From: an uncultured virus (IMG/VR IMGVR_UViG_2806310702_000001)
Lineage: Duplodnaviria; Heunggongvirae; Uroviricota; Caudoviricetes
DNA: 64,000 bases
Reading direction: 5' to 3' (one strand)
IMG/VR virus record: IMGVR_UViG_2806310702_000001
Below, in pieces: positions 3,443-54,883 of the stretch; position 1 is the stretch's first letter; each line of letters starts with the position of its first letter. The position numbers and the translations under genes are program-made. Below the pieces are notes generated by a model. That model was not told the DNA's origin. It saw nothing but the letters and a program-made list of their open reading frames with translations, and ran no database searches.

Positions 3443-3684
3443 TAGTTTAAATTTTAGATATTACATCTTTTAATTAAAGAATAGTATTAATTTACTATTT
3501 TTTTTTATTGCTTTTATTTATTGAGCATGATCCTGCATTAAATGTATAAAAAACGTAGCTCTTATTTAGTGTATAAGGTGCTTTAAATTATCTCTTAGAG
3601 TGTTTATACCTTAAGATCGTAAAACGCCTTATATGCTAAATTTAAAGTAAATCAATAAAATTACTCTTTTAAATAATTAATTTA

Positions 3685-3745
3685 AAAATTAAATTAAATT
3701 ATTTTCAAAAAAGTATTGACTTATGTACTTATTATATGATATTAT
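3685..3745 (+). promoter_or_regulatory. sigA promoter with upstream box
   Basis: Box 3685, TTGACT 3716, TGnTATTAT to 3745. Confidence 0.7.
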
Positions 3746-3933
3746 AAGTACATAAGATCAAGGAACAACATTTCAATTTAGTTTTCATATCAAGTTGACA
3801 GTTGCTAAGTAAAGACAAACAAAGCTATTCGTATTCAAACGAAAATTAAATTAAAAAATACACTTGACAATATGAGTCGTTTATATTATAATTAGTATTG
3901 TTAAGAGATAAAATTAAAAAGGAGTGTATTAAA

Positions 3934-5025
3934 ATGTTAAAAATATATAAAACAATTCAAGAAGCTGTAAAATATAACAAGGATACAAAGTGCTTTAACT
4001 TATATATACAAGATGCTAACATAAGAGTTGAACTTTTTGTTAACTGTTTAAAAATAACAGACCTTACAAACGCGCTTAAAAGGGGTAAAGAGTGTAAACA
4101 AATAACAGTTACATATTCAGAATTAACATCAGAAGATTTTTATATAGAATTACAAAATAAATACTTAAATCCAAGCAAAAAAGATTTGGAAGACTTAATA
4201 AATGAAATCAAAAATTTAAAAATTTTTGATTTACAAGATGTAGGATTCAATGTAGAATTAAGATTCCTAAAATCAATAGATATATTTTCACCTTTTGCAG
4301 ATATTAAGCCAATTAAACTTCCTAAAAACGGTAAATGGACTAAATCTCATGTTATCAAAGCAATTTTATCAGGTCAAATTTACGAAGGTAAGATAAACGG
4401 TATATATACGAATGACTATGCACACGATAATGCTGTACATTGTCACAAAAACGAAAACGTAGATTTAATGGGAATAGCTCAAAAATTAACAGAATCTAGT
4501 GGCGGTTGGGCTGTTAGATTTAAAGAAGAAAAAAACGATAATATAGCTTTAAATGTAGATTGCTGTACATTTAATTGTAATACATTATATTTTAATATAG
4601 ATAGCAGAAAAGATAATATAGAGTATGTAGAAAATCAAATAGAAGATATACAAGATCAAACTGCTGTTATAGATAATGTAATAACTTCAACAATAGAAAA
4701 AACAAATATAGATACTAATTCTAAAGTTGTAAATTTATTTGCTTACAAACAACAAAAACAAGAGAATAAACAACAATTATTTAAGAATTTATTATCTTGT
4801 AATAGTTTAGATCAGTTCAAAAATATTATAGAGAATTATTTAAAATATACTAAGAAAAAACATATTTATATAGAAGATAGCTTAACTAATACTAAACTAT
4901 TAGATAAATTAGAAATGTTATGCAAAGGTAACTTAGTAAAAATGATAGAATGCATAGACATTGTCGGTTACTTCATGATTAACGAAGATATTCAAGAGAA
5001 AAAATTGCATGACGACCAAAATTAA
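3934..5025 (+). CDS. Hypothetical phage protein
   Basis: ORF 3898-5025; start moved to ATG 3934, which follows AAGGAG. Confidence 0.75.
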   Translation: MLKIYKTIQEAVKYNKDTKCFNLYIQDANIRVELFVNCLKITDLTNALKRGKECKQITVTYSELTSEDFYIELQNKYLNPSKKDLEDLINEIKNLKIFDLQDVGFNVELRFLKSIDIFSPFADIKPIKLPKNGKWTKSHVIKAILSGQIYEGKINGIYTNDYAHDNAVHCHKNENVDLMGIAQKLTESSGGWAVRFKEEKNDNIALNVDCCTFNCNTLYFNIDSRKDNIEYVENQIEDIQDQTAVIDNVITSTIEKTNIDTNSKVVNLFAYKQQKQENKQQLFKNLLSCNSLDQFKNIIENYLKYTKKKHIYIEDSLTNTKLLDKLEMLCKGNLVKMIECIDIVGYFMINEDIQEKKLHDDQN

Positions 5026-5076
5026 ATTAAGAAATTTTCAAAAAGTGTTGACAATATAATTAAAATAATATATAAT
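5018..5076 (+). promoter_or_regulatory. sigA promoter with upstream box
   Basis: Box 5018, TTGACA 5048, 17 bp, TATAAT 5071. Confidence 0.8.
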
Positions 5077-5137
5077 AAATATTGTAAGGTTAAGGAAATT
5101 AAAAAAATAAAATTAAATTAAAGAGGAGAAATGAAAA

Positions 5138-5440
5138 ATGTCATTAGAAAAAATATTAGAAACTATAAAAGATTCTTATATAGGAGGTCACTTTACAATA
5201 TTGTCGCTAGACAATCAGTTGCAATGTGATGCAGAAAGATACGGACATGAAAATATATATTTCGACTCTATATACGATGGCGAAATGAGAGAAGAAGTAG
5301 AAAGCGAATCACATTGTTTTATAATCGAACGTAAGACAAATATAACTGATCAACTACTAGTTGAATATGAGATTATCGAAAAATGCGAAGATGATTTAGG
5401 TCAGACAGAAGTTAAAGTGACAGATATGAGTATAATATAA
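5138..5440 (+). CDS. Small acidic hypothetical protein
   Basis: 100 aa, GAGGAG RBS. Confidence 0.75.
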   Translation: MSLEKILETIKDSYIGGHFTILSLDNQLQCDAERYGHENIYFDSIYDGEMREEVESESHCFIIERKTNITDQLLVEYEIIEKCEDDLGQTEVKVTDMSII

Positions 5441-5482
5441 GTCGTTTGAGCGACTATAAATAGTACTTTAAGCTCAAAGCGT

Positions 5483-5505
5483 TATCCGACATCTAGTGTC
5501 GGATA
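5483..5505 (+). terminator. Stem-loop
   Basis: TATCCGACA-TCTAG-TGTCGGATA; no clear U-tail. Confidence 0.45.
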
Positions 5506-5526
5506 GGTAGTAAAATAAATTTTACA

Positions 5527-5586
5527 AAAATTAAATTAAATTATTTTTTAAAAAGTGTTGACAAGATAATTAAAATAATATATAAT
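5527..5586 (+). promoter_or_regulatory. sigA promoter with upstream box
   Basis: Box 5527, TTGACA 5558, 17 bp, TATAAT 5581. Confidence 0.8.
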
Positions 5587-5632
5587 AAATATTGTAAGGT
5601 TAAGGAAATTAACTTAAAAAGGAGAGTAGAAA

Positions 5633-6003
5633 ATGGATAGAGAATCAATTGCCAAGATAATTTAACTAGAATCATTATAGTAGATAACAAATTAGATTTA
5701 AAAGAAGGTCAAATTTACAACAATATGGGAAACATAGAAAGCTGGATGGGATCAAGTTCAACTGAAGATTTTAGGCCTGAATTAGATAATGAATATATGT
5801 ATGTATTCCATTGCGACAACGTGCCTTGTCATCAAGTCGATTATGAAGATGAGGAAGAGTGTGAAATTCTAGGAGCTACAGATTGCGAATCTGAAGGGGA
5901 ATGCCTCGTACTACCTTCAGTAAAAATGAAGATAGTTGACGTTGGTACAGATGAGGATCTAAAAGAGTTGGGATATATTCCTGTTCAACTAGAATTAGTT
6001 TAA
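5633..6003 (+). pseudogene. Acidic hypothetical protein, 5' end frameshifted or deleted
   Basis: The RBS-linked ATG at 5633 stops after 10 codons; the 5725-6003 frame stays open upstream (TRIIIVDNKLDL) without its own RBS. Confidence 0.5.
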
Positions 6004-6061
6004 AAGTCAGAATTATATGAGATCAGCTTTAGTTTGTTTTATAATAAACTCATATAATTTC

Positions 6062-12158: not shown

Positions 12159-12335
12159 AAAGATGGATATATTCCATCTTTTATTTTTATTAAAAATTGT
12201 ATTTAAAACCACTTTAAGTGGTAAAGATAAAAGTATGATTTTATAGTGATTCCAAGCTTGAAAAACGGAGTAAAATGAAGTATAAGAGAGTATTCAAGAG
12301 GAATTTTTTAAAAATAATATAATAAATAAAAAAAT

Positions 12336-17872: not shown

Positions 17873-17930
17873 TATCCATAAAAATTATATTTTATTTAAT
17901 TATAACAAATTCAAATATACGATTGATTTG

Positions 17931-18572
17931 TTACTTATTTTTATTTAATATATTTAAACAAATATCATGTTTATTTTCATTATAATATTTTAGAATTCTG
18001 ACAATTCTATTCAAATCATCATAATTGGTAGCTTCAATTGACACATGTTTGCCTTCTAATTTAGAATAATAGTAATTCAATACATCTCCTGCGCTATTTA
18101 TTATTTTTTCTATATTGCCATATGTTAATTTCGCATCATTTGATACTTCGTTGTTAGTTAAAAAATATTTTTTATCAAAATGAGCAAAATGCTTGTCTCT
18201 CCATGTAAATAGATTATTTAGAATATCAGAACATTCTTCTAGTTCTTGTATATGTTGTTTGATAATATTATTATTAATATCATCATGATTAATTCGTTTT
18301 ATATCTTGTTGAACTTTATTTAATAATTTATAAATACTACTATTGGTTTTACATGGTTTTTCATATATTTTAGCTAAAGTCATTATTATATCATTAATTA
18401 AAGCTTTAAGCGTTAATCCAAAAAACGCAGGTGCTATATTAAGTTCGTCTAAATTATCATTGGTTTTTTGTAACATTAATTTATAAAGTTTATATTCTGA
18501 ATTACAGTTAGTTAGTTCTTTTAATAGCCCTTCTGTATGTTTTTTTATTTGTTGTATATTATTATTTGTCAC
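17931..18572 (-). CDS. HEPN-domain (AbiU2-like) putative RNase
   Basis: Apparently helical, with an Rx4-6H motif WRDKHFAH; GAGGAGG RBS, GTG start. Confidence 0.7.
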   Translation of the reverse strand: MTNNNIQQIKKHTEGLLKELTNCNSEYKLYKLMLQKTNDNLDELNIAPAFFGLTLKALINDIIMTLAKIYEKPCKTNSSIYKLLNKVQQDIKRINHDDINNNIIKQHIQELEECSDILNNLFTWRDKHFAHFDKKYFLTNNEVSNDAKLTYGNIEKIINSAGDVLNYYYSKLEGKHVSIEATNYDDLNRIVRILKYYNENKHDICLNILNKNK

Positions 18573-20347: not shown

Positions 20348-21649
20348 ATGAATTTACTTGATATTTTTAAAATTAAAAAATTTAAACAAGATATAGAAAG
20401 ATTAACAAAAGAGAATTCTGAGCTGAGTAAAATAAAACATACCGTTGAACAATTGAAGTATTTAGATATGGAAAAAGAGATAAATTCACTTATATCTAAA
20501 AAAGAAGATTTAAATAAAAAAATTAATAATCTAAAAAATGAAGAAACTAAATATAAAAATCAAATTGATACTTTACAAAAATCTATTATTGTATTAAAAG
20601 ACGAAGATTTATTACAGTCTTTCGGATTTTATGAACCTAAATATAACTTAATGGATTCAGAAAAATACAAAGTAAGATTATCTGAAATTCGAGATAAACA
20701 AAAAATAATGGTTAAAAATAAAACTGCTGTAAATTATTATGATGAATGGACATTGAATGATAGCAAGGTTGAAGGTAGAAAAATGAATAATGATAATATA
20801 AAACTTATTATCAGATCATTTAATAATGAATGTGATGCCAGTATAATAAAAATAAAATTTAATAATATAGATTCTATAGAAAAGAAAATAAAAAAAGCTT
20901 TTGAGGTATTAAATAAATTAGGCAAAAGAATGAAAATAAGCATAACCCATGATTATTTAAATTTAAAAATTGAAGAACTATACTTGGCCTATGAATACGA
21001 AATAAAGAAACAAGAAGAAAAAGAAGAACAACGCAGAATTAAAGAACAAATACGTGAAGAGCAAAAAGTCTTAAAAGAAATAGAATCAATGAAACAAAAA
21101 ATTGAAAAAGAAGAAAAACATTTTAGACAAGCTATAGACGAATTATCTTTAAAATGTGAGAATGCTTCAGAAGAAGATAAGCTAAAATATAAAGAAAAAA
21201 TGAAAGAATTGCAAAGTCAATTAGAAGCACTAGAAAAGGATAAAGAAGACGTTTATAATCGTGAACAAAATACTAGAGCTGGTTATGTATATGTAATATC
21301 AAATATAGGTTCATTTGGTGAAAATGTGTATAAAATAGGCATGACAAGAAGATTAGAGCCTACTGACAGAGTTAAAGAACTATCAGGAACATCTGTTCCT
21401 TTTGCTTTTGATATACACGCAATGATTTTTAGTGAAGATGCTCCTAAATTAGAATCTAAATTACACGAAGTATTTAGAGATAAAGAGGTTAACAAAGTTA
21501 ATCATAGAAAAGAATTTTTTAAAGTTTCTCTTGAAGAAATTGAAAAAGTAGTAAAAGAAGAGTTCGATAAGCCTGTGGAATTTATAAAATTAGCACAAGC
21601 TGAAGAGTATAGACAATCTTTAGTAATAGAAAACAATGTAACTGCTTAA
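20348..21649 (+). CDS. DUF4041 + T5orf172/MUG113 (GIY-YIG-like) protein
   Basis: RSFNNECD, AGYVYVISNIGSFGENVYKIGMTRRLEP; ATG after GGAGG. Confidence 0.9.
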   Translation: MNLLDIFKIKKFKQDIERLTKENSELSKIKHTVEQLKYLDMEKEINSLISKKEDLNKKINNLKNEETKYKNQIDTLQKSIIVLKDEDLLQSFGFYEPKYNLMDSEKYKVRLSEIRDKQKIMVKNKTAVNYYDEWTLNDSKVEGRKMNNDNIKLIIRSFNNECDASIIKIKFNNIDSIEKKIKKAFEVLNKLGKRMKISITHDYLNLKIEELYLAYEYEIKKQEEKEEQRRIKEQIREEQKVLKEIESMKQKIEKEEKHFRQAIDELSLKCENASEEDKLKYKEKMKELQSQLEALEKDKEDVYNREQNTRAGYVYVISNIGSFGENVYKIGMTRRLEPTDRVKELSGTSVPFAFDIHAMIFSEDAPKLESKLHEVFRDKEVNKVNHRKEFFKVSLEEIEKVVKEEFDKPVEFIKLAQAEEYRQSLVIENNVTA

Positions 21650-22051
21650 AACTGTTATTTTATAGAGATTTTTATATATACTAAAATTTAATTCTAAAGA
21701 GGTCTATAGTAAAAAAGATATAACAATATTAAATATAAGCCATATTTAAGCCTAAGAGCCTTTTAAATTATAAAAAGGTATCTTAGGTTATTTTAGTGTT
21801 TAAAATCGAATTTAAGGGTAAATAAGGCTAAAATAAAAGGTATATATGGATAACGATATAAATATATGTTTTAGATAGAAAAAATATGAGTAAAAAACAA
21901 CGATAAAAGTGATTAATAAGAGTGTACAAAAACACGTTGCAAATATTGTAGTATATTCTAACTGAATATATACAAGTATATATTACTAAAAGAATGTAAT
22001 AGTATATAGAATTGCTAGAGGCGTTGATATGACTAGGGTGTAGAGGTGTTT

Positions 22052-24950: not shown

Positions 24951-24981
24951 GAGTCATTAAAATCTATCTTTTATGATGATA

Positions 24982-30867: not shown

Positions 30868-31966
30868 AAAAAGACAATATAAAAGAAGATTTGTTACAGA
30901 AGAAAAAATGTATAATGAAGATATAAAAAATAGATTTATAGATTATTTCTACGATAACGAACAAACTAAAGAAAGTATAAAAAGAACATTTTATTTAACA
31001 AATTGTTATATGGAATCAGATTTAGATAAAGATGTCTATGATTTCAATAAATATGAGATAGAAAATTTATTAAAGTCATTTAAAGCCACATCGGAGGGTA
31101 GCCTAGGAGTAAGATTAGCTCATTTAAAGAAATATATCGATTTTTGTATTAGCATGGGTATTAGAGCTAATGCAATAAATTTCTGTGATAGTATAACAAA
31201 TTTAAAAGATTATGTTGTTAGAAATATGGATAAATATAAATATATAACTAGAGAACAGTTATATAATATTTGTGAAACTATACCTAGTGCACAAACGGCG
31301 ATAATTTTTATACTAGCATTTGAAGGTATAGTAGGTAAAGATAAATGTGAAATGCGAAATTTAAAAATTGAAGATGTAGATTTTGAAAATAGAACAATTA
31401 CGGTACGTGCATATGATGAAGTTAATCCACGTACAGGTGAGATAGTTTATAAGCCTGAAAGGGTATTAAAAAATGTAGATTCAAGAACTTTACAATATAT
31501 ACAAGATGCTATAAACGAAACAGTTATGGTTTTACCAGAAAATAAATCCTTTACTAGTCCAGAAATAGAAGTAGAAAAAATGCGAGGAGCTAGAGATGAG
31601 CGCAATAGGATTTTTTATCTTGTTAAAACAGATTACGTATTAAGAAAATCTGCATCTAAAGGGGAGGATACTGAGTATAGCGAGGAACTAAATGAACCTA
31701 TTCCATCTCCTACAATCCAGACTCGAATTTATAATGCTATAAATTTCTTTGTGGGTAATGAAAGTGAAGAAATGTATTTTGTAAAAAAACTTAATGCTAC
31801 TTCTTTAGAACAAAGTGGTATGATAGAAGAATTAGAAAAAATTGAAAAACAAAAAGGTGATCTAAAAGTATCTGATTTTAAATATGTAATAGAATCTAGG
31901 AATAAAAAGACGTACTATTCATTAAAAAAATTATGGGATCATATCAAAAAAGAGATGGATAATTAA
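30860..31966 (+). CDS. Degenerate tyrosine-recombinase-fold protein, SPbeta YopR/MrpR-like candidate repressor
   Basis: ILAFEGIVGKDKCEMRNLKIEDVD (box I without Arg); TSLEQSG in place of HxLRHS. Confidence 0.7.
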   Translation: MAKKRQYKRRFVTEEKMYNEDIKNRFIDYFYDNEQTKESIKRTFYLTNCYMESDLDKDVYDFNKYEIENLLKSFKATSEGSLGVRLAHLKKYIDFCISMGIRANAINFCDSITNLKDYVVRNMDKYKYITREQLYNICETIPSAQTAIIFILAFEGIVGKDKCEMRNLKIEDVDFENRTITVRAYDEVNPRTGEIVYKPERVLKNVDSRTLQYIQDAINETVMVLPENKSFTSPEIEVEKMRGARDERNRIFYLVKTDYVLRKSASKGEDTEYSEELNEPIPSPTIQTRIYNAINFFVGNESEEMYFVKKLNATSLEQSGMIEELEKIEKQKGDLKVSDFKYVIESRNKKTYYSLKKLWDHIKKEMDN

Positions 31967-37000: not shown

Positions 37001-37050
37001 TTAAAATTCAAGTTTTATACAACACAAAATTAAATTATGGAGGGATAAAA

Positions 37051-37535: not shown

Positions 37536-37715
37536 ATGTTAATAGAATCAAAAGATATAGAAAAATTAATTAATACATATCAAATACAAATTAAAACTTG
37601 TAAAGAAATATTAAATAAAAATCCTATCAGTATAGCCGATAATGAATACTTAGAAACTAGAATCAATACTTATAGAGATGTAATATGGGATTTAAAAAGA
37701 ATTATAGGATTGTAA
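37536..37715 (+). CDS. Small hypothetical protein (59 aa)
   Basis: GGGAGGA RBS; promoter TTGACA 37486-17-TATAAT. Confidence 0.6.
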   Translation: MLIESKDIEKLINTYQIQIKTCKEILNKNPISIADNEYLETRINTYRDVIWDLKRIIGL

Positions 37716-37773
37716 AACATATCTTTTATGAGGTATAACAGATAATTAAAAAATAATATATGGAGGGGTTAAT

Positions 37774-40750: not shown

Positions 40751-40828
40751 AACAAAGCTACAAATAAAAAACTCATTTTATGGGTTATAATAATGAATTA
40801 AAATATATTAATAATAGGAGGGACTTAA

Positions 40829-42031: not shown

Positions 42032-42174
42032 TTTTAGCCTTGAAAGAGGTGTCATACATAAAATGTCTATTTTAAAATCGTTGAAAAATTAAATTAAATA
42101 TATTAATTAAAGTAAGAACAATATATCTACTGATAGCATATATTATTAGTAGATATATAAGGGAGGTATTATTT

Positions 42175-43507: not shown

Positions 43508-43711
43508 TAACAAACAATTAAAATACACAATAATCATCATTTTAAACGCTTAATTCTTGTAAAATCTTAAAAATTTAAAATTATCTAATACATTTCATTT
43601 AAAATTGATTTTTAAGATTTTGAAGGATTTTGTTACAAATGAATTTCTTAAACCGTTGATACATAAGGGTTTAAAGGGTGTTGAAAGTGTTTAAAATTTG
43701 AGTTTTAAATA

Positions 43712-46739: not shown

Positions 46740-46748
46740 TTCTATATA

Positions 46749-46891: not shown

Positions 46892-46957
46892 TATAAATGT
46901 AGACAGAAAGAAACACTACATACGGTAGCAAAATTAAATTAAAGGTGGTGAATAAAA

Positions 46958-47161: not shown

Positions 47162-47187
47162 AGAATTATAAAGAAAGGAATGAGTTT

Positions 47188-47778
47188 ATGAATAAGCCAA
47201 AAATAATTCTAGTATTAGGTCAATCAGCAAGTGGCAAATCAACTTTAATAGAAGAAATGGAATGGTATGGGTATAAAGCCGTACAAAGCTATACTACTAG
47301 ACCAAAGCGAACTAAAAATGAAAAAGGACATATATTTGTAAAAGAAAGTGATTATACTTTTATTCAGGATAATAAAACCAATGAAGTAAGAATATATGAC
47401 AAACTAGGGAATGAAGTCAATATAGTAGCTTATACATATTTCAATGAAAATCATTATTGGGCAACCATGGATCAAGTGGCAGGAAGTACGTATTACATAA
47501 TAGATAAAGCAGGTGTAGATGATTTCATTGATAAAGTAGGAGATAAAGTAGATTATAAAATAGTATATATAACTGTTCCGTTCTTTACTAGGATTAAAAG
47601 ATTAATAAAGAGAGATGGATTAGTGAAGGGAGTATCAAGACTAATTAATGATTTTAAAATGTTTAGAAGATTAAAATATGATGAAAGGATAATTAATAAA
47701 GATTTAGAACATAGTGTTCAAGAATTAAGAATGATAACAGAAAAATTTATAAAATCAAAAGAAAAGGTGATTAAATGA
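47188..47778 (+). CDS. Guanylate-kinase-like NMP kinase
   Basis: GQSASGKST, SYTTRPKR..E..H.FV. Confidence 0.85.
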   Translation: MNKPKIILVLGQSASGKSTLIEEMEWYGYKAVQSYTTRPKRTKNEKGHIFVKESDYTFIQDNKTNEVRIYDKLGNEVNIVAYTYFNENHYWATMDQVAGSTYYIIDKAGVDDFIDKVGDKVDYKIVYITVPFFTRIKRLIKRDGLVKGVSRLINDFKMFRRLKYDERIINKDLEHSVQELRMITEKFIKSKEKVIK

Positions 47779-48242
47779 TAAAATTATATATATTGGTATT
47801 TATACTAAAGTTGGTGGATTGCATATTCACTACAACCAAGACAAAAGCTTTGATTTATGGATATGACAAATTTGCAGGAATATTAAAAGGAGTAGCATCC
47901 ATTACAAATGCGATAATATTAATGAATGTAGTAATAGCTAAAAGCTATACAGGAATAATTGTAATAGGTGTCGCAGAAACTCTAGGAACATTTTTGGCTA
48001 CAGGATTATTTAATAAGTTTAAGAAGGATGAAGAATGGACATTCTTTGTAGCTCCAAAGACAAGAGAAGATAGTAAAGTAATTGCAGATACTTTAAGAGA
48101 TGAAGGTATACATACTTATACAATTGAAGGATATTATAATAAAAATTCTGTATTGAGTTGTATTGTATCAGCTAAAACTAAAGAAGAAAGCAAGATTGTA
48201 AATCAAGTTTGTAAGGACAAAGCAAAATGTAAAAGGATATAA
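47775..48242 (+). CDS. Membrane protein (DUF5698/DUF2179-like)
   Basis: About three TM helices followed by a LRDEG..TY soluble domain. Confidence 0.6.
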   Translation: MIKLYILVFILKLVDCIFTTTKTKALIYGYDKFAGILKGVASITNAIILMNVVIAKSYTGIIVIGVAETLGTFLATGLFNKFKKDEEWTFFVAPKTREDSKVIADTLRDEGIHTYTIEGYYNKNSVLSCIVSAKTKEESKIVNQVCKDKAKCKRI

Positions 48243-48280
48243 AAAACGGCTTTTATTGTGAAAATAGGGAGGAATAATTA

Positions 48281-48544
48281 ATGAAAAAGTATACTTATGT
48301 AACAATATTAACACCAGAATTAGATGGAAATGGATTATATGCAACATTTCCAGATTTAAAAGGTTGTTTCACTTGTGGAGATACCATCAAAGATACTTGT
48401 AATCGAGCTAAAGAAGCATTAGAAGGATATTTAGGTGTATTAATAGAAAAGGGACAAAAACCACCTACGCCAACACATATAAATGATATTAAAGTAAACT
48501 CAACGGATTTTCCATTGTTAGCGTTAATTGAAGCTGAAATATAG
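48281..48544 (+). CDS. HicB-like antitoxin domain protein, orphan
   Basis: FPDLKGCFTCGDT...AKEALEG...PPTP. Confidence 0.85.
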   Translation: MKKYTYVTILTPELDGNGLYATFPDLKGCFTCGDTIKDTCNRAKEALEGYLGVLIEKGQKPPTPTHINDIKVNSTDFPLLALIEAEI

Positions 48545-48563
48545 AGGAGGAGGATTAGTAATT

Positions 48564-48824
48564 ATGAAGTGTAGAAAATATGAAGGTTATAGTGTGTTAT
48601 GCCAAGACTGTGATATAAAGGAACATATAGCATGTAGTAAGAAATTTCATTTTGATAAGAAAGAAAAATATATAAGTGTACAAAGAAAAGATTTTATGAA
48701 TGCAACTTGAAATGAGTGTCCCACTTGTGGAAACTCTATTGGATATCAACCGTTGAATAATAGCTACAGATGTCCTAAATGTAGCCAATTAATATCTTGG
48801 GAAACTGAAGAGGAGGAAAATTAA
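48564..48824 (+). pseudogene. Zinc-ribbon protein interrupted by an in-frame TGA
   Basis: Frame continues past TGA 48708-48710 as NECPTCG...RCPKCSQLISW. Confidence 0.65.
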
Positions 48825-48825
48825 T

Positions 48826-49173
48826 ATGAACAAAACATATAAAGGTTGGGAAATTCTTAAAATGACAGAGGAAGGAAAATTTAAAGAGGGTGATAGAATC
48901 CATAACGATATTACTGGCTATGAATTCGATGGTGAATTGTGGATTGACATGTATGATGTATCAGCAGGAGTAGAAATATCAGAATTTATAGGTCAAGAGT
49001 TCGAAATTATAACTAAACCAGTAACTTTTATGGAAGCATTTACAGCATTGCAAAGTAACAAAAATATCAAAGTTGAACATAATGGAGTTAAACATTTTAA
49101 AGGAAATCATCCTGAAGATTATTTATTTAATGAGAGTGATATATCTAGGGGTGTATGGTATATCGAAGAATAA
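48826..49173 (+). CDS. Hypothetical phage protein
   Basis: 115 aa, GAGGAGG RBS. Confidence 0.75.
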   Translation: MNKTYKGWEILKMTEEGKFKEGDRIHNDITGYEFDGELWIDMYDVSAGVEISEFIGQEFEIITKPVTFMEAFTALQSNKNIKVEHNGVKHFKGNHPEDYLFNESDISRGVWYIEE

Positions 49174-49242
49174 TTAAAAATTAAACTCATAAAATGGAGT
49201 TTTTATCGTGATATAATTTAAATAGAATAGGAGAGATCAAAC

Positions 49243-49626
49243 ATGCTTTACACATCATATCTAAATAAACTAAATGCGTTACCAAAGGATACACCTAAAA
49301 TGTTAATCACTAGATTCATACCTAAATGGTTTAATATTAAGAAATATCCTAATACATATTTAAAACGAGAATTAGCACCATCTCAAGATTTATTATTGCG
49401 ATTTAAGAAAGATAATGATTGGGACGAGTATATTGAAAATTTCACTAAGGAAATGGAAGCTAGACAAGATATGAAAGAAGCTTTAAATAAAATGTTAGAA
49501 TATTTAAGGAAGGGCAATGATGTTGTACTAATTTGTTATGAGAAAGACTATAAACATTGTCATAGAAGTTTAATAGGTAAATGGGTACAATCTCAGGGCA
49601 TAGAGTGGAAAGAATATAATTTTTAA
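49243..49626 (+). CDS. DUF488-family protein
   Basis: YTSY, ELAPS, LICYEKD...CHR. Confidence 0.8.
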   Translation: MLYTSYLNKLNALPKDTPKMLITRFIPKWFNIKKYPNTYLKRELAPSQDLLLRFKKDNDWDEYIENFTKEMEARQDMKEALNKMLEYLRKGNDVVLICYEKDYKHCHRSLIGKWVQSQGIEWKEYNF

Positions 49627-49638
49627 GGAGGAGTTATT

Positions 49639-50079
49639 ATGGAATTAATAGAAAAGAAAATGAATTTATTTGAGGTAGACGATAGATATTATCTAGCACA
49701 TTGTATTAGTGCTGATTGTACTACAGATAGTAGAAGTATGGGTAGAGGTATAGTTGTAGAATTTAATAAAAGGTTTAATATGAAAAATAAGATAAGAGAA
49801 TTCTATGGAAAAACTACAGTTAAAATTGGAGACGTAGCATTGATAGGAAGAGTCTTTAACCTTATCACAAAAGGTAAATACTATGGTAAACCTACTTATC
49901 TTTCATTTAGTATAATGCTAGAAGAATTAAAATCACAAGTAGTAGAAAACAATATTAAATATTTAGCTATTCCTAAAATAGGATGTGGATTGGATCGTCT
50001 TTCATGGGGTAGAGTTAGAGAAATGATTAAAGAGACATTTCAAGATATAGATATAAAAATATTAGTATGTAGTTTATAG
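49639..50079 (+). CDS. Macro domain (Poa1p/TARG1/DarG-like) ADP-ribose hydrolase
   Basis: LAHCISAD, MGRGI, FNLITK, AIPKIGCGLDRLSW. Confidence 0.9.
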   Translation: MELIEKKMNLFEVDDRYYLAHCISADCTTDSRSMGRGIVVEFNKRFNMKNKIREFYGKTTVKIGDVALIGRVFNLITKGKYYGKPTYLSFSIMLEELKSQVVENNIKYLAIPKIGCGLDRLSWGRVREMIKETFQDIDIKILVCSL

Positions 50080-50091
50080 GAGGGTGTTTTA

Positions 50092-50493
50092 ATGGTAAAA
50101 GTAATGATATTCGGTGGAAGAGATTTTAATAACTATAATTTATTAAAAGAAAAGTGTGATGAAATTTTAAAAGATATTGAAGATGAAATTGTTATTGTTT
50201 CAGGCAAAGCTAGTGGGGCAGATAGTTTGGGTGAAAGATACGCTAAAGAAAAAGGGTATATCGTAGAAGAACATCCTGCAAAATGGAATGATTTAAATTC
50301 TACACCATGCAGAATAAAAGTTAATAGGTATGGCAGAGAATACAATGCATTAGCAGGGATGAATAGAAACAAAGATATGGTAAATGCTTCAGATATAGCT
50401 ATAGGATTTTGGGATGGTAAAAGTAAAGGTACTGCTAATAGTATTGCATTGGCTAAAAAGAAAGGAATAAGATTAGAAATAATTAAATATTAG
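50092..50493 (+). CDS. SLOG-superfamily protein (YspA/DUF2493-like)
   Basis: FGGRDF, VSGKASGAD, AGMNRN, FWDGKSKGT. Confidence 0.85.
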   Translation: MVKVMIFGGRDFNNYNLLKEKCDEILKDIEDEIVIVSGKASGADSLGERYAKEKGYIVEEHPAKWNDLNSTPCRIKVNRYGREYNALAGMNRNKDMVNASDIAIGFWDGKSKGTANSIALAKKKGIRLEIIKY

Positions 50494-50636
50494 AATGATG
50501 ATATACCTAGACATACACATATATAAATTTGTATACGATAAAAATGGATGAAGCAGTATAGCAATATATTGCGTATGGAATAAAATTCTAGTACCATATA
50601 TGTAGAGAGTAGATAAATTAGAAAGAAGGTAAGTAT

Positions 50637-51149
50637 ATGTATGAAATAATTAAAGTAGAACAATTAGGAAGTACAATAAACAAGTACGATATGTCTATTG
50701 TAATAAAGAATAATACCAGCTTAGAACATTTAAAGCATATTATCGAAACTGAGATAATACCAAAGGCACAACAGAAATATAATTTTGATGAATTGTATAT
50801 CGGATTTTTTGAGGACAAAAATTTAATAGGATTTGGAACAACTTTAGGTTATGCAATATGTTCACCAACAGGAGATTTTTCAGGTAAATATAAACTAAAT
50901 CACGATTTATCTAATATGAAAATAGGTTATGATAATTTATCAAATTTTGAGGACAAGTGGAATAATAGACTAACTCATAAAGAAGCTATTATATTTAAAG
51001 ATATTAAAAGTGGTTTTACAAATGAAGCTACTAGTGGAGATATAGAAGCAGAAAATGAGGTAATTAGAAAAGTAGCAAGTAAACATAACGTATCATTTGA
51101 TGAAGTTAATGAGGTTATATTCAAACACGCTAAACATTTTCGCTATTAA
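50637..51149 (+). CDS. Hypothetical protein flanked by inverted repeats
   Basis: 170 aa. Confidence 0.7.
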   Translation: MYEIIKVEQLGSTINKYDMSIVIKNNTSLEHLKHIIETEIIPKAQQKYNFDELYIGFFEDKNLIGFGTTLGYAICSPTGDFSGKYKLNHDLSNMKIGYDNLSNFEDKWNNRLTHKEAIIFKDIKSGFTNEATSGDIEAENEVIRKVASKHNVSFDEVNEVIFKHAKHFRY

Positions 51150-51208
51150 AATAATAATATAACAATTGATCTACTCTCTTTATATAAAAACTTGATTTTA
51201 TAACCAAC

Positions 51209-51269
51209 GAAATTAAATTAAATTATTTTAAAAATAACTGTTGACAAATAAAAATAAACATGGTAATAT
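51209..51269 (+). promoter_or_regulatory. sigA promoter with upstream box
   Basis: Box 51209, TTGACA 51241, 17 bp, TGnTAATAT. Confidence 0.75.
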
Positions 51270-51333
51270 ATACTTGTAGCAACAAGGAAGCACAAAAATA
51301 ACAAAAACAATACATATAAGGAGATACAAAACT

Positions 51334-51501
51334 ATGAAAACTTTAAAATGCATTAAAAGTACAGAAGGATTTATAATAGGAAAGGAATACAAAAGCTTAG
51401 GATCAGATGAGTTTGGCTTTGGTCAAAGAATTATCAATGATAATAATGAGGAAATAGTTATGAACCTAGATAGTGTTAAAGAGTATTTTCAAGAAATGTA
51501 G
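51334..51501 (+). CDS. Small hypothetical protein (55 aa)
   Basis: AAGGAG RBS; MKTLKCIKS... Confidence 0.6.
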   Translation: MKTLKCIKSTEGFIIGKEYKSLGSDEFGFGQRIINDNNEEIVMNLDSVKEYFQEM

Positions 51502-51586
51502 TCAATCTGAAAATAAATATATTTTTCAAGAGTCACAAAATTAAATTAAATAAAAAACAATATATGAAAGGTAAAGGTGAATTAAT

Positions 51587-52213
51587 ATGACAAACATAAA
51601 AAAATTATCAAACAAAGAAATAAGAAAAGCTGATGAGTTTACAAAAGCAATATTTAATGGAGATGAAAATCTATTAGGAAGTTTATTAGGAGTTAAACCA
51701 ATGGTATTGGGAGATCAAGAAAGTATCTTCTTACGTAACAATTGGGGCGATTTATCCAAATATATAGAAAAATTATCAACAAAGGTTGAAGAAAATAAAT
51801 TACATAAACAAGAAATTATTAAAGAAAAGGAATATCAACCACAAGTAGGAGATGAAGTTCTAATATTAGATAGTCCTGAAGGTATTAAGAATGTAAAAGG
51901 AACTATAGTTGATGAAGTTAAAGGAACTGAACAATTCTTAATCAAACTAAGCGAATTAAATGCATTATATGTAGATAAAGATAAAGTACAAGTTGTTAAG
52001 AAAAAACAAAATGTCGAAGAGATAAACAAGTTAAAAGATAAAATTCAAAAATTGAAAGATTGTAAAGATATTCTTATAGATGAAATACAGTGTGTAACAA
52101 AGCAAATTAAAGATTTAGAAGATAATAAAATAAATATCCAACAAGAACTTAAGCAGACTACTACAAAATTGGAACAATGTAAACAACAATTAGAACAAAT
52201 AGAAAGTAGATAA
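51587..52213 (+). CDS. KOW/SH3-like + coiled-coil protein
   Basis: QVGDEVLILD...GTIV; heptad-rich C-terminus. Confidence 0.65.
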   Translation: MTNIKKLSNKEIRKADEFTKAIFNGDENLLGSLLGVKPMVLGDQESIFLRNNWGDLSKYIEKLSTKVEENKLHKQEIIKEKEYQPQVGDEVLILDSPEGIKNVKGTIVDEVKGTEQFLIKLSELNALYVDKDKVQVVKKKQNVEEINKLKDKIQKLKDCKDILIDEIQCVTKQIKDLEDNKINIQQELKQTTTKLEQCKQQLEQIESR

Positions 52214-52214
52214 T

Positions 52215-52436
52215 ATGAAATTTAAAACTGGAGATTTAGTATTAGTTAAAAATGTAGGTGTGGATCATCTAAAACAATATAAAAATATGTGTGGTGAGAT
52301 TATAAGTTGGATTAAAACTAAAAGCGAAGTTAAATATAAAGTTAGAATATATAATTCAAATGATTGGGAAACTGCTTATTTTAAGCAAAATGAATTGGAA
52401 TTATTAGATACTAAAGGAGATGATAAAAATATATAG
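52215..52436 (+). CDS. Small KOW/SH3-like protein
   Basis: KFKTGDLVLV...GEI...F..NELE. Confidence 0.65.
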   Translation: MKFKTGDLVLVKNVGVDHLKQYKNMCGEIISWIKTKSEVKYKVRIYNSNDWETAYFKQNELELLDTKGDDKNI

Positions 52437-52770
52437 TGATACTGTAGAATGTCCTTATTGTGGATATAAGAATAACATGACAGACGCATTATGTGACGGA
52501 TTGGGTGATGACAATACTTTAGATTGGGAATGTGAGAATGAGAATTGTGGTAAAGAGTTTGAGATATACGTTGAGTTTGAGCCTACATATAATGCTAAAA
52601 AGATAGAATATGTAAAATGTGATTCATGTGGTAGAGCTATAAGGGATAGCGAAGCATCTATATATGGGAGAACTAATCCATTTCCTCAAAGATTTAAAAC
52701 AGAAGGTCTAAAATTATGTCATAGGTGCTATTGTAGAGAAATGGTTAGAGAATTAGAAGGAGATGATTAG
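52420..52770 (+). CDS. Cys-rich zinc-finger protein
   Basis: CPYC, CxxxxC, CDSC, CHRC. Confidence 0.7.
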   Translation: MIKIYSDTVECPYCGYKNNMTDALCDGLGDDNTLDWECENENCGKEFEIYVEFEPTYNAKKIEYVKCDSCGRAIRDSEASIYGRTNPFPQRFKTEGLKLCHRCYCREMVRELEGDD

Positions 52771-53076
52771 ATGGTTAAGAAATACCTATTATTGTGCAAC
52801 AGACATAACAGTATATATGGAGATAATTGGTGTTTGTTTTGGGGCCGTAGAGAGGACAAGGCAGGTTATACATCTGATGTAAGAATAGCTCATAGATTCA
52901 ACGAAGAAGAAATTCAAGGATATAAAGGTGGAACAGATGATATACCCATACCTATAGATGAGTTAGGATTATCTGAATACTATGTGAACGAAGAAGACTA
53001 TAACGAAAATATTAGAGTTATGATTGAAAAGGAGGTTTTGAATAAGATATTGGGATTAAATTTAAAAACATTATAA
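52771..53076 (+). CDS. Hypothetical phage protein
   Basis: 101 aa, directly abuts the previous gene. Confidence 0.7.
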   Translation: MVKKYLLLCNRHNSIYGDNWCLFWGRREDKAGYTSDVRIAHRFNEEEIQGYKGGTDDIPIPIDELGLSEYYVNEEDYNENIRVMIEKEVLNKILGLNLKTL

Positions 53077-53109
53077 GTTATTTAAAATATGTAAAAATAC
53101 GGAGGGAGT

Positions 53110-53301
53110 ATGAGGTATTGGAATGTAGTTAAAAGAGAAGTGAAAACCAACGAATATGTAAAAATAGTTAAATCATATCCTTGCTTTGGAAGGACAGATA
53201 TTGATATAAAATATAAAGCAGAATCTAAAACGAGGCTTCTAAATTTATTAAGATATATAAATAATAAATATTATTATGTAGTAGAATTTGATTTTGAATA
53301 G
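53110..53301 (+). CDS. Hypothetical protein
   Basis: 63 aa, GGAGGG RBS. Confidence 0.55.
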   Translation: MRYWNVVKREVKTNEYVKIVKSYPCFGRTDIDIKYKAESKTRLLNLLRYINNKYYYVVEFDFE

Positions 53302-53315
53302 ATTATAAAAAGAAG

Positions 53316-53564
53316 GTGAAGTCAATGGATGAATGGGCTTTGTTAAAATGTTTAAAATGTGATTTCCCATTTATAGTACATTCCAAAGAATATATAGCAG
53401 TTATAAATAGTAATTATCCATTTATGTATTGTCCTAAATGTGGTAAAGAGAATAATGTAAGCAAAGATTGTTTTCAAGAACATATAGAATTACCATTAAC
53501 AGTTAAAAAGGTAATGAAATATGTAGTTAGTAAGAAATCATATAAGAAAGAAATGAGGGGCTAA
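53316..53564 (+). CDS. Zinc-ribbon protein
   Basis: CLKC...CPKC. Confidence 0.6.
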   Translation: MKSMDEWALLKCLKCDFPFIVHSKEYIAVINSNYPFMYCPKCGKENNVSKDCFQEHIELPLTVKKVMKYVVSKKSYKKEMRG

Positions 53565-53566
53565 TT

Positions 53567-53767
53567 ATGATGAAAGCAACGCCAAAGTTTAATAAAGATT
53601 CATCGAAATGGATAATTGATATTGAGACAGAAGAAGGCGAAATTTTGCCTGTAGGAACAATGATAGATGATAAGATAGGAATGTATATAGTTTCAGAATG
53701 GAACACTAAAAAACTAGCAGAAGAATGGATTAAGACAAAGCCTAAAATATTAACCTTGGGATATTAG
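53567..53767 (+). CDS. Hypothetical protein
   Basis: 66 aa, GAGGGG RBS. Confidence 0.6.
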   Translation: MMKATPKFNKDSSKWIIDIETEEGEILPVGTMIDDKIGMYIVSEWNTKKLAEEWIKTKPKILTLGY

Positions 53768-53812
53768 TTCTCAAAAATAAAATTAAATTATAATGTTTAA
53801 AGGTGGTGTAAA

Positions 53813-53911
53813 ATGAATTTTACCCGAGTTTTATTGGACTTATTTCTAGGATTTTCAATTGGATCGATACTAGCGTTTATAATAGCAATACATATTAAAT
53901 CACAAAAATAG
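53813..53911 (+). CDS. Small single-TM peptide (32 aa)
   Basis: AAGGTGG RBS; MNFTRVLLDLFLGFSIGSILAFIIAIHIKSQK. Confidence 0.45.
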   Translation: MNFTRVLLDLFLGFSIGSILAFIIAIHIKSQK

Positions 53912-53937
53912 TAGATTGTGAAGGAGGAGTGATTAGG

Positions 53938-54087
53938 ATGTTAGAAGAAATGGAAATAGAAGCAATAAAAAATTTACTGATTAAAAAAGGAATAATAACA
54001 GAGAAAGAAATTAAAGATGAGTATGACAGTATTTTAAGAAAAAGATGGGAAGATAATGAAGATGGTAGATTTCGTCACACATATTAA
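53938..54087 (+). CDS. Small hypothetical protein (49 aa)
   Basis: AAGGAGG RBS; LLIKKGIITEKE. Confidence 0.55.
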   Translation: MLEEMEIEAIKNLLIKKGIITEKEIKDEYDSILRKRWEDNEDGRFRHTY

Positions 54088-54154
54088 AGTTCGTTCGCAA
54101 AAATAAAGGTTACAGAGATAGTAGATTGGTGAAATAAGAAAGGAGATAGATTAT

Positions 54155-54418
54155 ATGAAAAATAAAATATTAACGTTATTAATCGGAGCAATAATAGGTG
54201 GGGCGGTGAGTTGTTTAGCAGTAAAGGCAGACACAAAGCCTAAAACTGATTATGAAACAGCAATTGAACAGATTAACAAAGCAAATGACACAATGTGGAC
54301 AGATAGCGTAAATGCTCATACGAATATGGCTTCATCATATTTGTTGAAAGGGATTTATGAAGAACAAAAGAAACAAACGGATATATTACAAAAAATATTG
54401 GTTAATTGGCAAAAATAA
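54155..54418 (+). CDS. Small secreted or membrane-anchored protein
   Basis: Signal-like N-terminus ending AVKA; AAGGAG RBS. Confidence 0.65.
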   Translation: MKNKILTLLIGAIIGGAVSCLAVKADTKPKTDYETAIEQINKANDTMWTDSVNAHTNMASSYLLKGIYEEQKKQTDILQKILVNWQK

Positions 54419-54493
54419 AGGGCTACACGCAACAAAGAGTAATTCATAAAACAATGCTTTTATTGAAATATACAACATAGGGGATTCTATATC

Positions 54494-54586
54494 CCCAACT
54501 CTTAATGCAACTTTATATTAATATCCACGTTGGTTCGTAGAGATATAATATAGAACGGTCACAAGTCCGTATAAATGCAGAGTGGG
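54494..54586 (+). ncRNA. Candidate structured RNA
   Basis: Closing stem CCCAACTC..TGCA..TTTATA / TATAAA-TGCA-GAGTGGG enclosing two hairpins; non-coding gap. Confidence 0.35.
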
Positions 54587-54883
54587 AGTAAAAAATATTA
54601 AAAAATGCAAGTAATTCAAAAACAATGGATCAAAGAAATGGAGGGATAAAGGAAGTAAAAGAAGTGAAGGTCAATGTCAAATACTAAATAAGTGGCTCTA
54701 TAAATGATTTTAAACACTTTAAAGTTGAAAAAATGTATTTTATCAATACAAACGATTCTATGGCGATATTTACAAAAATCACGAATTTTGATAAAATACA
54801 ATTGCTAGAACCATTGATTTATAAGGGTTTCAGAGGTTCAAAATCACTATAAAAGTGCAATTTTATGTAAAGTAAAATATAGC

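Follow-up and report, generated by a model that had tools for sequence, protein, structure and literature searches.

Strict palindromes with conserved six-base centres at module borders of SPbeta-like phages and their putative role in gene exchange

The interrupted palindrome TAAAA-N6-TTTTA occurs at the borders of accessory gene modules in the early region of SPbeta-like phages, where it appears to mark the points at which related phages exchange these modules. It was studied in a stretch of 64,000 nucleotides from an uncultured virus of the Caudoviricetes (IMG/VR record IMGVR_UViG_2806310702_000001), which is referred to below as the window. The window is AT-rich (23-28% G+C). It is a mosaic, related to Clostridium phage c-st and to the p1-type plasmid prophages of group III Clostridium botulinum. 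It matches the first ~53 kb of these relatives, which according to the annotations is their SPbeta-like early and replication region. In phages of two host genera the palindrome is a strict junctional motif with colinear conserved centres, and its flanks are replaced at the site edge. We propose that the palindromes are protein-recognised joints in the accessory early region of SPbeta-like phages and that DNA would be exchanged across their centres by a reaction of the Xer/Cre type. To this statement as a whole we assign a probability of about one half; the chemistry is the part of it that we infer.

Exact copies of the palindrome in the window

Seventeen exact copies of the palindrome were found in the window. 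The mean number in 100 dinucleotide-preserving shuffles was 3.29 (standard deviation 1.94, maximum 10), and none of the 100 reached 17. The excess is bound to the spacing of six bases: with the spacer length k varied from 0 to 15, TAAAA-Nk-TTTTA was counted 1, 3, 5, 0, 6, 5, 17, 1, 1, 3, 3, 2, 3, 9, 3 and 6 times, respectively, and the swapped arms, TTTTA-N6-TAAAA, were found three times. An unbiased scan of the window for all five-base interrupted palindromes with spacings of 2-10 ranked TAAAA at k=6 first, with 17 copies versus a mean of 3.0 at the other spacings. Variants with one mismatch are not enriched in the window, 44 being present at k=6 versus 57-64 at k=4, 5, 7 and 8, and the motif is therefore all-or-none. 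Inverted arms around exactly 6 bp match the layout of a tyrosine-recombinase core site, in which two inverted binding arms enclose 6-8 bp, as the initial annotation, which was made from the letters of this DNA alone, had pointed out.

Fifteen of the copies had been listed in that annotation, and all of them are exact (Table 1). They had been described as intergenic or as overlapping a stop codon, which our gene model bears out: no coding base is found in 12 of the 15 and the other 3 overlap a stop codon, while coding sequence makes up 83.5% of the window. Single sites directly follow a CRISPR-like mini-array and the methylase gene pglX, and no site is present among the replisome genes (54866-64000), both as first described. 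Two additional exact matches, at 18159 and 30978, lie wholly within open reading frames (ORFs). These are probably chance matches, their number being near the chance expectation of ~3. The match at 30978 drifts as coding DNA does, since the relatives have AGAACC against AGAACA at this place. It had also been stressed that every centre is unique. This is true of all 17 copies, but it is expected by chance and uninformative alone, because 17 draws from 4096 sequences seldom collide. The informative feature of the centres is therefore their conservation between genomes and not their diversity within the window.

Conserved centres and exchanged flanks

The palindrome is not restricted to the window. 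SPbeta contains 34 exact sites versus 2.07 in shuffles, with the excess again at k=6 only, and phi3T contains 30 sites versus 2 for a reversed control pattern. In five c-st-type relatives (c-st, p1873, p3859, pBKT2873 and BKT015925), 8-19 sites per 50-100 kb were counted versus 2.3-4.1 expected. The whole records of these relatives hold 30-36 sites versus 7-16 for the control, and the density is highest in the first 45-58 kb. Besides the operator SPBRE, the palindrome is a second repeated element common to SPbeta-like phages of two host genera.

The window was compared with the five relatives and with further IMG/VR contigs (L012-L018). The six genomes share the centres GTATGA, ATTATA, CTGTTA, TCTATC, TTCAAG, CATATC, AACTCA, TGTCTA, TTTGAG, TGGAGT, ACTTGA, CAATGC and GTGCAA in this order, not all of them being present in each genome, and the centres of the contigs L012-L018 follow the same order. 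Of 101 pairs of sites with the same centre, 19 are homologous on both sides, 58 on one side only and 24 on neither side. Where an unrelated flank begins, identity runs past the site by a median of 2 nt; the run is at most 4 nt long in 52 of 59 cases on the left and in 40 of 47 on the right. The junctions thus fall inside the identical 16-20 bp, which fits strand exchange at the borders of the centre and is not diagnostic of it. The supposition of the initial annotation that accessory modules are gained and lost at the sites agrees with this comparison. The slot AACTCA..TGTCTA, which holds rtcB in the window, may serve as an example. It is 1278 bp long here and 2376, 1578, 854 and 1006 bp long in the four relatives that have both borders, and in 4/4 of them 0% of it can be aligned. 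Likewise, the slot TGGAGT..ACTTGA comprises 1979 bp in the window and 320 unrelated bp in p1873.

In these comparisons the centres had been preselected. When 53 comparisons were instead anchored in the flanks, the same centre was found in 34, no exact site in 15 and another centre in 4. Several of the 15 cases are decayed copies with one mismatch or with k=5. The four cases with another centre collapse to three site-to-site fusions. At 43692 the flank found to the left of TGATTA in c-st and p1873 is joined to the centre and right flank of their TTTGAG site; between these two sites lies a methylase gene in c-st and 38 bp only in p1873. The other two fusions belong to p1873. In one of them the left flank (a gene) of AACGGC abuts TGGAGT directly and the hicB block is absent, and in the other the right flank of GTGCAA follows ACTTGA. 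At orthologous sites, 5 of 432 centre positions are mismatched (1.2%) versus 314 of 1638 positions in the adjacent homologous flank (19%), the latter value being taken from an ungapped comparison and possibly inflated.

The pair SPbeta and phi3T gave the same picture. Their 22 shared centres are strictly colinear, with both flanks homologous at 13, one flank at 4 and neither at 5, and identity stops 0-6 nt past the site. On comparison of the genomes, the relatives retain each copy in order while the neighbouring genes are swapped, and the sites are read as exchange joints, not as plain operators.

In integrons, accessory genes are delimited by recombination-type sites of attC/attI arrays, beside which lie an IntI-type tyrosine recombinase gene, attI and a common promoter. 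The attC sites are imperfect inverted repeats which fold as single strands and are variable in sequence and conserved in structure, and the cassettes are mostly single promoterless genes of the same orientation. An integron-like capture, in which circular cassettes with one site each would be excised and inserted at resident sites by an integrase, had been the interpretation of the initial annotation. The hicB block, which has a centre of its own (AACGGC), occurs in the window and is missing from p1873, as the insertion of a one-site circle would leave it, and the 38-bp slot between two sites of p1873 is empty. Mini-circles bounded by promoter-early stem-loops (PeSLs) are described in T4-type phages (PMC2839356). 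However, a deletion between two sites accounts for these patterns equally well. The palindromes are strict 5+6+5 sequences without the folded structure of attC, and neither an integrase nor attI nor a common promoter (Pc) adjoins the array. The slots carry from one to several genes. Some of these are encoded on the minus strand (17931-20107), some have promoters or terminators of their own, and the two ends of a slot bear different centres. The cargo is thus not made of promoterless single genes. We have given up the integron-like interpretation as very improbable.

Anatomy of the site and its relation to transcription

The clostridial consensus, derived from 80 distinct 44-mers, is A-TAAAA-N6-TTTTA-T. 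G and C are never seen at the flanking positions, and the centre is without information. The arms in SPbeta are lengthened by symmetric flanks to ~11 bp each (T at -6, A at +21). Neither complementarity above column composition nor covariation nor an attC-like structure was detected in the flanks and the centre. Since the flanks are symmetric and covariation is absent, the palindrome is regarded not as a conserved hairpin but as a symmetric target, in double-stranded DNA, of a symmetric binder. An RNA or DNA hairpin was rejected on the lack of covariation and on the Rfam search, which returned no family at the sites or in the slot 54447-54865.

A site usually lies 3′ of a stop codon or terminator hairpin and 5′ of the leader of the next gene, at a distance from the next start codon of about 20 to over 200 nt. 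Strong sigma-A-type promoters are located 41-49 nt past some sites (51241-51269, 54914-54942). Other sites lie within operons, directly before a ribosome-binding site, and many leave no room for a promoter. Matches to a sigma-A promoter are not enriched in the window (131 versus 145 in shuffles), and their spacing to the sites is not fixed. A role as a sigma-A promoter element was rejected on these grounds. The phage RNA polymerase YonO is described to start the late operon from one site (PMC5467207), and a role of the palindromes as YonO promoters was likewise rejected, a single start site driving the whole operon. The variable distances to promoters and start codons, the sites inside operons and the single YonO start together argue against a promoter or a classical operator.

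The repeated operator SPBRE deserves separate mention. Its binder MrpR, the master repressor of SPbeta, has a tyrosine-recombinase fold and no longer functions as a recombinase; the 15-bp SPBRE is bound by it in about ten promoter regions (PMC10516654). Chromatin affinity purification with sequencing (ChAP-seq) of MrpR is reported to have given ten peaks, which all fall at SPBRE promoters and not at palindromes (PMC10516654). We derived SPBRE from the SPbeta ChAP-seq target regions and found it in 9/10 of them, in yorM only with 3 mismatches. The palindrome resembles SPBRE in being a repeated intergenic element of the same phage family, and a homologue of MrpR is encoded in the window. Unlike the palindrome, the derived SPBRE, …AAATAATATGTATA…, lies in the spacer between the TAGACA -35 and TATAAT -10 boxes of ~10 promoters, and the two elements are unrelated in sequence and place. 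Distant relatives were sampled through MrpR: a single protein retrieved c-st only, a word-based homologue search 2 clusters and a six-row alignment 14 loci. The gene pair YopQ-MrpR is present in six of these distant loci (L019-L024), which have no excess at k=6, and the pair therefore does not predict the motif. The identity of the palindrome with the MrpR operator was rejected on the sequence of SPBRE, the ChAP-seq peaks and the occurrence of YopQ-MrpR in the motif-negative loci. One of the distant loci, L021, is an IMG/VR contig of which 20.7 kb around an MrpR-like gene were analysed. It shows no k=6 excess and contains four copies of TTAAAA-N5-TTTTAA versus 0.25 at other spacings. With such small numbers, this sequence may be a variant of the joint with a five-base centre in another phage lineage.

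The initial annotation had named the site of a dimeric regulator as its alternative. The palindromes would then be purely regulatory, as operators of a dimeric transcription factor, and their position at module borders would merely follow that of promoters and gene ends. Operators classically have half-sites one helical turn apart, a consensus written in the same way is listed for an unrelated archaeal regulator (PMC5397151), and SPbeta-like phages do use SPBRE as a repeated operator while the window encodes an MrpR homologue. Against this, the motif is not SPBRE, the 34 palindromes of SPbeta are not where MrpR peaks, promoters stand at no fixed position and many in-operon sites offer no room for one, one-mismatch copies are not in excess, and phages without the motif have the YopQ-MrpR pair as well. 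In addition, the centres are conserved and the islands of identity outlast the replacement of both flanks, and YonO uses a single late-operon start. Pure regulation is thus disfavoured and appears quite improbable.

A different short sequence, the leader box AAATTAAATTAAA, is present in 24 exact intergenic copies, all on the + strand (e.g. at 777, 867, 2908, 3686, 24983, 42086 and 51210). It is often found ~9 nt 3′ of a palindrome and lies upstream of a TTGACA -35 box or just before a ribosome-binding site. With up to 2 mismatches, 134 matches were counted versus 93 in shuffles. The leader box might act as an UP-like element or as the operator of the MrpR homologue.

Breakpoints and recombination data

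The ends of blastn high-scoring segment pairs (HSPs) between the window and the five relatives were clustered into 93 breakpoint events, 55 of which are intergenic. Eight of the 93 events lie within 5 bp of a site, where a fraction of 0.7% is expected (P about 3e-7), and 6 of the 55 intergenic events do so versus 3.4% expected (P=0.011). Within 10 bp the numbers are 14/93 and, for intergenic events, 11/55 versus 4.7% (P=4e-5). The 24 leader boxes served as a control; 7/93 events and 7/55 intergenic events versus 6.3% expected (P=0.058) are within 10 bp of a box. The 3′ ends of genes in general are also enriched in breakpoints, with 13/93 events within 5 bp. In the comparison of SPbeta with phi3T, 4/54 megablast HSP ends fall within 5 bp of a site (P=4.6e-4).

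Three phi3T/SPbeta hybrids that arose in the laboratory (MT366946-8) were painted with parent-specific 21-mers. Some of the parent-identical stretches in the hybrids end exactly at sites. The hybrid crossovers neither show nor exclude the use of the sites. Contigs of four public sequencing runs were also aligned to positions 36001-56000; being contigs, they are blind to rare junctions and circles. In some cases they break at sites, namely at 37000, 40789 and the joints at 37713 and 49209. In run X3 the match of a contig begins exactly at 37713, and an internal contig break is found at 40789.

Candidate enzymes and the proposed mechanism

The statement of the initial annotation that no intact recombinase lies in the window was confirmed. 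The ORF 30860-31966 is the sole recombinase-fold gene of the window and encodes a homologue of MrpR/YopR (Pfam MrpR_N_CB 78.4 bits, cut-off 27; YopR in PDB, E=1.6e-11), which matches the catalytic Phage_integrase domain below the cut-off (E=0.061). In the relatives, an intact gene is found elsewhere in the genome: all five complete c-st-type genomes carry a Phage_integrase-family gene above the cut-off, here called CST104 type, at 92-113 kb and far from the array. The nearest solved relatives of its product are XerC-like proteins and XerA (E=3.5e-13, PDB). In 5/5 genomes a palindrome is located 450-593 bp from the 3′ end of this gene, at the place where the plus- and minus-strand arms meet. 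In SPbeta, the palindrome at 39886 is 399 bp from yomM, a weakly Cre-like recombinase gene. The CST104-type protein in c-st and YomM in SPbeta are, judged by these matches and positions, the candidate enzymes, both encoded outside the window.

BLASTP revealed 22 proteins common to SPbeta and c-st, most of them virion proteins. The others are YonO, YorJ, YorL, a methylase, dUTPase, YopQ, YopR, a weak match to a YopO-like helix-turn-helix protein and a YoqD-type antirepressor. A type I or BREX-type methylase with the palindrome as its recognition site was dropped as a candidate, since no such methylase is among the 22 proteins and the intergenic placement of the sites would be unexplained. Host XerCD was also considered as the enzyme, in view of the dif sequence of Bacillus, and was not adopted as the candidate.

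On the reading as recombination joints, each joint would follow the stop codon or terminator that ends one module and precede the leader of its neighbour. The joint would retain its own six-base centre over evolution while related phages trade the DNA to its left and right, the junctions lying at the edge of the site. A simple tyrosine recombinase may bind with one protomer to each of the two arms, and strands would be exchanged across the six bases between them. If the centres match, the exchange between co-resident relatives would be held in register, as in heterospecific lox/FRT sites, and rare reactions between unlike centres would yield the observed fusions and deletions. The enzyme could be the phage's own Xer-like recombinase, of CST104 type or YomM in SPbeta, with one site 0.4-0.6 kb from its gene. 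A further step would be a dedicated natural cassette-exchange system of SPbeta-like phages, with ~30 recombinase sites of identical arms and conserved six-base addresses at which an Xer/Cre-like enzyme swaps modules in register. This we put forward tentatively, as possible rather than probable.

A number of observations weigh against recombination at the joints by such an enzyme. CST104 and YomM are only 20% identical (E 3e-4) and both belong to generic integrase families of PHROGs, and a shared dedicated enzyme is therefore not established. We rejected the shared recombinase as a demonstrated fact, the similarity of CST104 to YomM and YopP being at the family level only. A lysine of YomM aligns with the arginine of the H-x-x-R stretch of CST104. 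The conserved arms measure just 5-6 bp in the clostridial lineage, which is short for a recombinase arm. The three fusions unite sites with different centres, which strict matching of centres would forbid. The genomes compared share ancestry, and the counts and P values given above overstate the number of independent events. Of the 93 breakpoint events in the window, 79 lie more than 10 bp from any site, and the contigs of the sequencing runs break off-site too (48895/49624, 52770/53325). No site is present in the two finely resolved crossovers of the hybrids (87 and 39 bp, both in Hyb3), and the remaining major switches occur in parent-identical stretches of 1.4-5.1 kb, as ordinary homologous recombination gives. 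No recombination reaction at the sites and no excised circle was seen, either in the hybrids or in the contigs, which are blind to circles. Since the switches lie in long parent-identical stretches and the fine crossovers are off-site, the hybrid events resemble ordinary homologous recombination.

The main rival takes up these points. The arms would be kept strict by a protein that is not a recombinase and has an architectural, insulating or regulatory function, and exchange would be a side effect of relaxed or general homologous recombination. Host RecA or the Sak4-like annealing protein of the phage would use the islands of 16-20 bp identity, the sole homology that otherwise unrelated modules share. 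The hybrids, which recombine within ordinary homology with no crossover resolved to a site, fit this explanation. A Sak4-type AAA_24 gene is present in the window; the corresponding gene of SPbeta, yorG, carries the annotation of a Sak4-like annealing protein. The leader boxes gather some breakpoints too, and fusions of unlike centres are the expected product of annealing at shared arms. However, per element the palindromes gather ~3 times more breakpoints than the equally long leader boxes (14 per 15 versus 7 per 24). The conservation of the centres relative to their flanks is left unexplained, as are the exact 6-bp spacing and exact arms from Bacillus to Clostridium phages. We hold this alternative to be rather unlikely; the operator and the integron-like capture considered above, together with the nuclease discussed next, are less likely still.

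Interrupted type II or symmetric type I recognition sites resemble the palindrome in format. A phage or host endonuclease with such a specificity might cut the sites, and repair against a co-resident relative would place the junctions there. Recognition sequences of enzymes typically combine all-or-none arms and a free centre, and the window and its relatives encode DNA ligases. Nevertheless, cutting would not require conserved centres, and the repair of breaks leads to conversion tracts of variable length, not to junctions ~2 nt from the site. Phages normally shed cut sites rather than gather 30 of them, and no candidate nuclease is among the 22 BLASTP-level proteins shared by SPbeta and c-st. 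A nuclease hot spot is accordingly improbable.

Comparison with known systems

Two described systems come closest to the palindromes. One of them is the PeSL cassettes found in T4-type phages (Arbiol et al. 2010, PMC2839356). There too, short conserved intergenic elements bound insertions, deletions and replacements that distinguish close relatives, in hyperplastic regions rich in non-essential genes, and the palindrome joint shares with them its place between a terminator and the next leader or promoter. In contrast, PeSLs are described as functional units of a strong sigma-70-type promoter and a terminator stem-loop that recombine by homology, whereas the element studied here is a strict palindrome of 16-18 bp without a promoter or terminator of its own; these adjoin only some of the sites, at variable distance. 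Moreover, each copy of the palindrome has a conserved centre, and the motif is kept in phages of two host genera.

The other is the pdif sites of Acinetobacter plasmids with their dif modules (Mindlin et al. 2019, PMC6449649). In these plasmids, many recombinase-type core sites in accessory regions flank adaptive genes as putative exchangeable modules, and the mechanism was likewise deduced from comparative genomics. The pdif sites, however, resemble the chromosomal dif of the host and are attributed to the host XerC/XerD. The arms of the palindrome are specific for the phage lineage and are found alike in Bacillus and Clostridium hosts, and its copies form a colinear series with conserved centres. 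In the single-recombinase Xer systems difH/XerH and difSL/XerS, inverted arms with the inner ends …GAAAA / TTTTC… enclose a short central region in which strand exchange takes place, and the site is located beside the recombinase gene (PMC5357621). The A4/T4 inner arm ends and the palindrome near the CST104-type gene recall this layout, a resemblance and not a demonstrated membership. Those sites are single chromosomal sites for dimer resolution with arms of 10-11 bp (PMC5357621). By contrast, there are ~30 palindromes per genome with 5-6 conserved arm bases in the clostridial lineage, and their enzyme is only a candidate.

The conserved centres themselves find an analogy in engineered systems. 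Heterospecific lox and FRT sites have identical arms and different spacers, only spacer-matched sites recombine, and this is used for cassette exchange with Cre and Flp. The same principle would account for the in-register exchange and for the conserved centres. Unlike these engineered sites, the palindromes form a natural genome-wide series, and three fusions between unlike centres are seen. No natural genome-wide series of heterospecific lox/FRT-like sites was found described in the literature searched. The same holds for the motif itself, of which no published description was found in the accessible portions of the literature searched (including PMC10516654, 10.1101/2021.11.22.469490 and PMC3098183; the 1999 SPbeta genome paper and supplements lay outside the scope).

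Sites and gene content of the window

The sites and the genes in and around the slots are compiled in Table 1. The module names given in the initial annotation were largely supported by Pfam, which recognised HEPN_AbiU2, DUF4041/T5orf172, the PglX-type methylase, RtcB, HicB, DUF488 and the SLOG protein; the match to DUF2325 is below the cut-off.

Table 1. Palindromes, in-frame matches and Pfam-assigned genes of the window
Feature	Position	Strand	Description	Relatives and surroundings
Junction palindrome, centre TTACTC	3656..3671	.	Exact site, intergenic	No exact site at this place in relatives with homologous flanks
Junction palindrome, centre GTATGA	12228..12243	.	Exact site; HSP end at 12228	Also in p3859 and pBKT2873; left flank unrelated, right flank conserved
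Junction palindrome, centre ATTATA	17879..17894	.	3′ of terminator hairpin; left border of HEPN/DUF4041 block	Right flank replaced in c-st, p1873 and pBKT2873; HSP end at 17896
Junction palindrome, centre CTGTTA	21647..21662	.	Provides the DUF4041 gene with its stop codon (TAA)	Kept in 5/5 relatives; right flank of two kinds; different left flank in c-st; HSP end at 21646
Junction palindrome, centre TCTATC	24958..24973	.	Immediately 3′ of 3-repeat CRISPR-like mini-array	Sigma-A-type promoter (TTGACA) ~40 nt downstream, by reading the sequence
Junction palindrome, centre TTCAAG	37002..37017	.	1 nt past pglX stop (pglX end 37000)	Kept in 5/5 relatives; left flank pglX or ligA terminator; right flanks of several kinds
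Junction palindrome, centre CATATC	37713..37728	.	Overlaps stop codon	5/5 relatives
Junction palindrome, centre AACTCA	40765..40780	.	Left border of rtcB slot	5/5 relatives
Junction palindrome, centre TGTCTA	42059..42074	.	Right border of rtcB slot, 3′ of terminator hairpin	
Junction palindrome, centre TTTGAG	43692..43707	.	Fusion joint	
Junction palindrome, centre AACGGC	48240..48255	.	Left border of hicB block; overlaps stop codon	
Junction palindrome, centre TGGAGT	49190..49205	.	Divides hicB block from DUF488/SLOG block	
Junction palindrome, centre ACTTGA	51185..51200	.	Promoter at 51241-51269	
Junction palindrome, centre CAATGC	54447..54462	.	HSP end at 54446	Also in p3859 at 53023; one-mismatch copy in c-st
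Junction palindrome, centre GTGCAA	54850..54865	.	Precedes promoter of HD-domain gene (54914-54942)	
Exact match in HEPN_AbiU2 ORF	18159..18174	.	16/16 bases coding; probably chance	No counterpart in relatives
Exact match in MrpR-homologue ORF	30978..30993	.	16/16 bases coding; probably chance	
HEPN_AbiU2	17931-18572	minus	Pfam	
DUF4041/T5orf172	20261-21649		Pfam	
PglX-type methylase	33812-37000		Pfam	
RtcB	40829-42031		Pfam	
HicB	48281-48544		Pfam	
DUF488	49243-49626		Pfam	
SLOG protein	50092-50493		Pfam	
Sak4-type AAA_24 gene	57519-58493		Pfam	

Some further features of the palindromes were noted. A copy with one mismatch (final base G, not A) and the centre AGCGTG is found at 23431-23446, at the stop of the ORF 22192-23433. 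It is probably a decayed joint, since the same centre sits in an exact site of p3859 at 30635. The ~190 bp to the left of the sites at 43692 and 54850 are paralogous (43515-43707 and 54672-54865). Both stretches finish in the palindrome and contain the conserved sequence GAACC-TTGAT-ATAAGGGTTT. In the c-st record AP008983, two exact palindromes are located at 67366 and 71974, beside and inside the neurotoxin gene cluster region (annotated 67935-79540), where the density is near chance.

Two adjacent genes occupy the region 29461-31966. The first encodes a homologue of YopQ, which is DndB-like, contains a DGQHR stretch and matches Pfam DndB below the cut-off (E=3.3e-5); the second encodes the MrpR/YopR homologue. 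At 32488-37000, an ATP-dependent DNA ligase and the PglX-type methylase replace the NAD-dependent LigA of c-st, p1873, pBKT2873 and BKT015925. The left breakpoint of this replacement (~32496) is off-palindrome, and the right one is at the palindrome 37002. The CRISPR-like mini-array at 24794-24949 consists of three 32-nt repeats with spacings of 57 and 67 and has no adjacent cas genes in the window; near this position, the relatives have cas7, cas5 and cas3. The segment 45354-46739 contains a DDE transposase gene (45417-46619, minus strand). It is a recent insertion of an insertion sequence, since contigs of the runs X3, X5 and X9 skip it, with 7 letters fitting both sides. A Pistol ribozyme match was found at 5440-5512 on the + strand (71.2 bits versus a gathering score of 34.5, full model 1-68); it begins on the last base of the ORF 5138-5440. 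The single ORF at 14042-16936 encodes a protein of 964 aa with an N6-adenine methylase domain and a DEAD/ResIII helicase, in the style of a single-chain restriction-modification or defence enzyme.

Implications for the evolution of SPbeta-like phages

How a stable gene order goes together with a fast turnover of accessory genes in large temperate phages is an old question, which the modular theory of phage evolution has raised. In the phages studied here, a strict and easily searched sequence marks the exchange points, also in the genetically tractable system of SPbeta and Bacillus subtilis, which makes the question directly testable. The slots of the window hold cargo of the defence type and of the RNA-repair type (HEPN/AbiU2, PglX-type methylase, RtcB, HicB, DUF488, SLOG), and the joints offer a practical map for locating new accessory genes in SPbeta-like phages. 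If the enzyme is found, the joints would constitute a natural multi-address recombination system. A dedicated cassette exchange, if true, would be the natural counterpart of the engineered heterospecific lox/FRT sites and would allow defence and counter-defence modules to be swapped without scrambling the gene order. The joints explain the mosaic early region that comparative genomics has shown in this phage family, including that of the toxin-converting phages of the clostridia of animal botulism.

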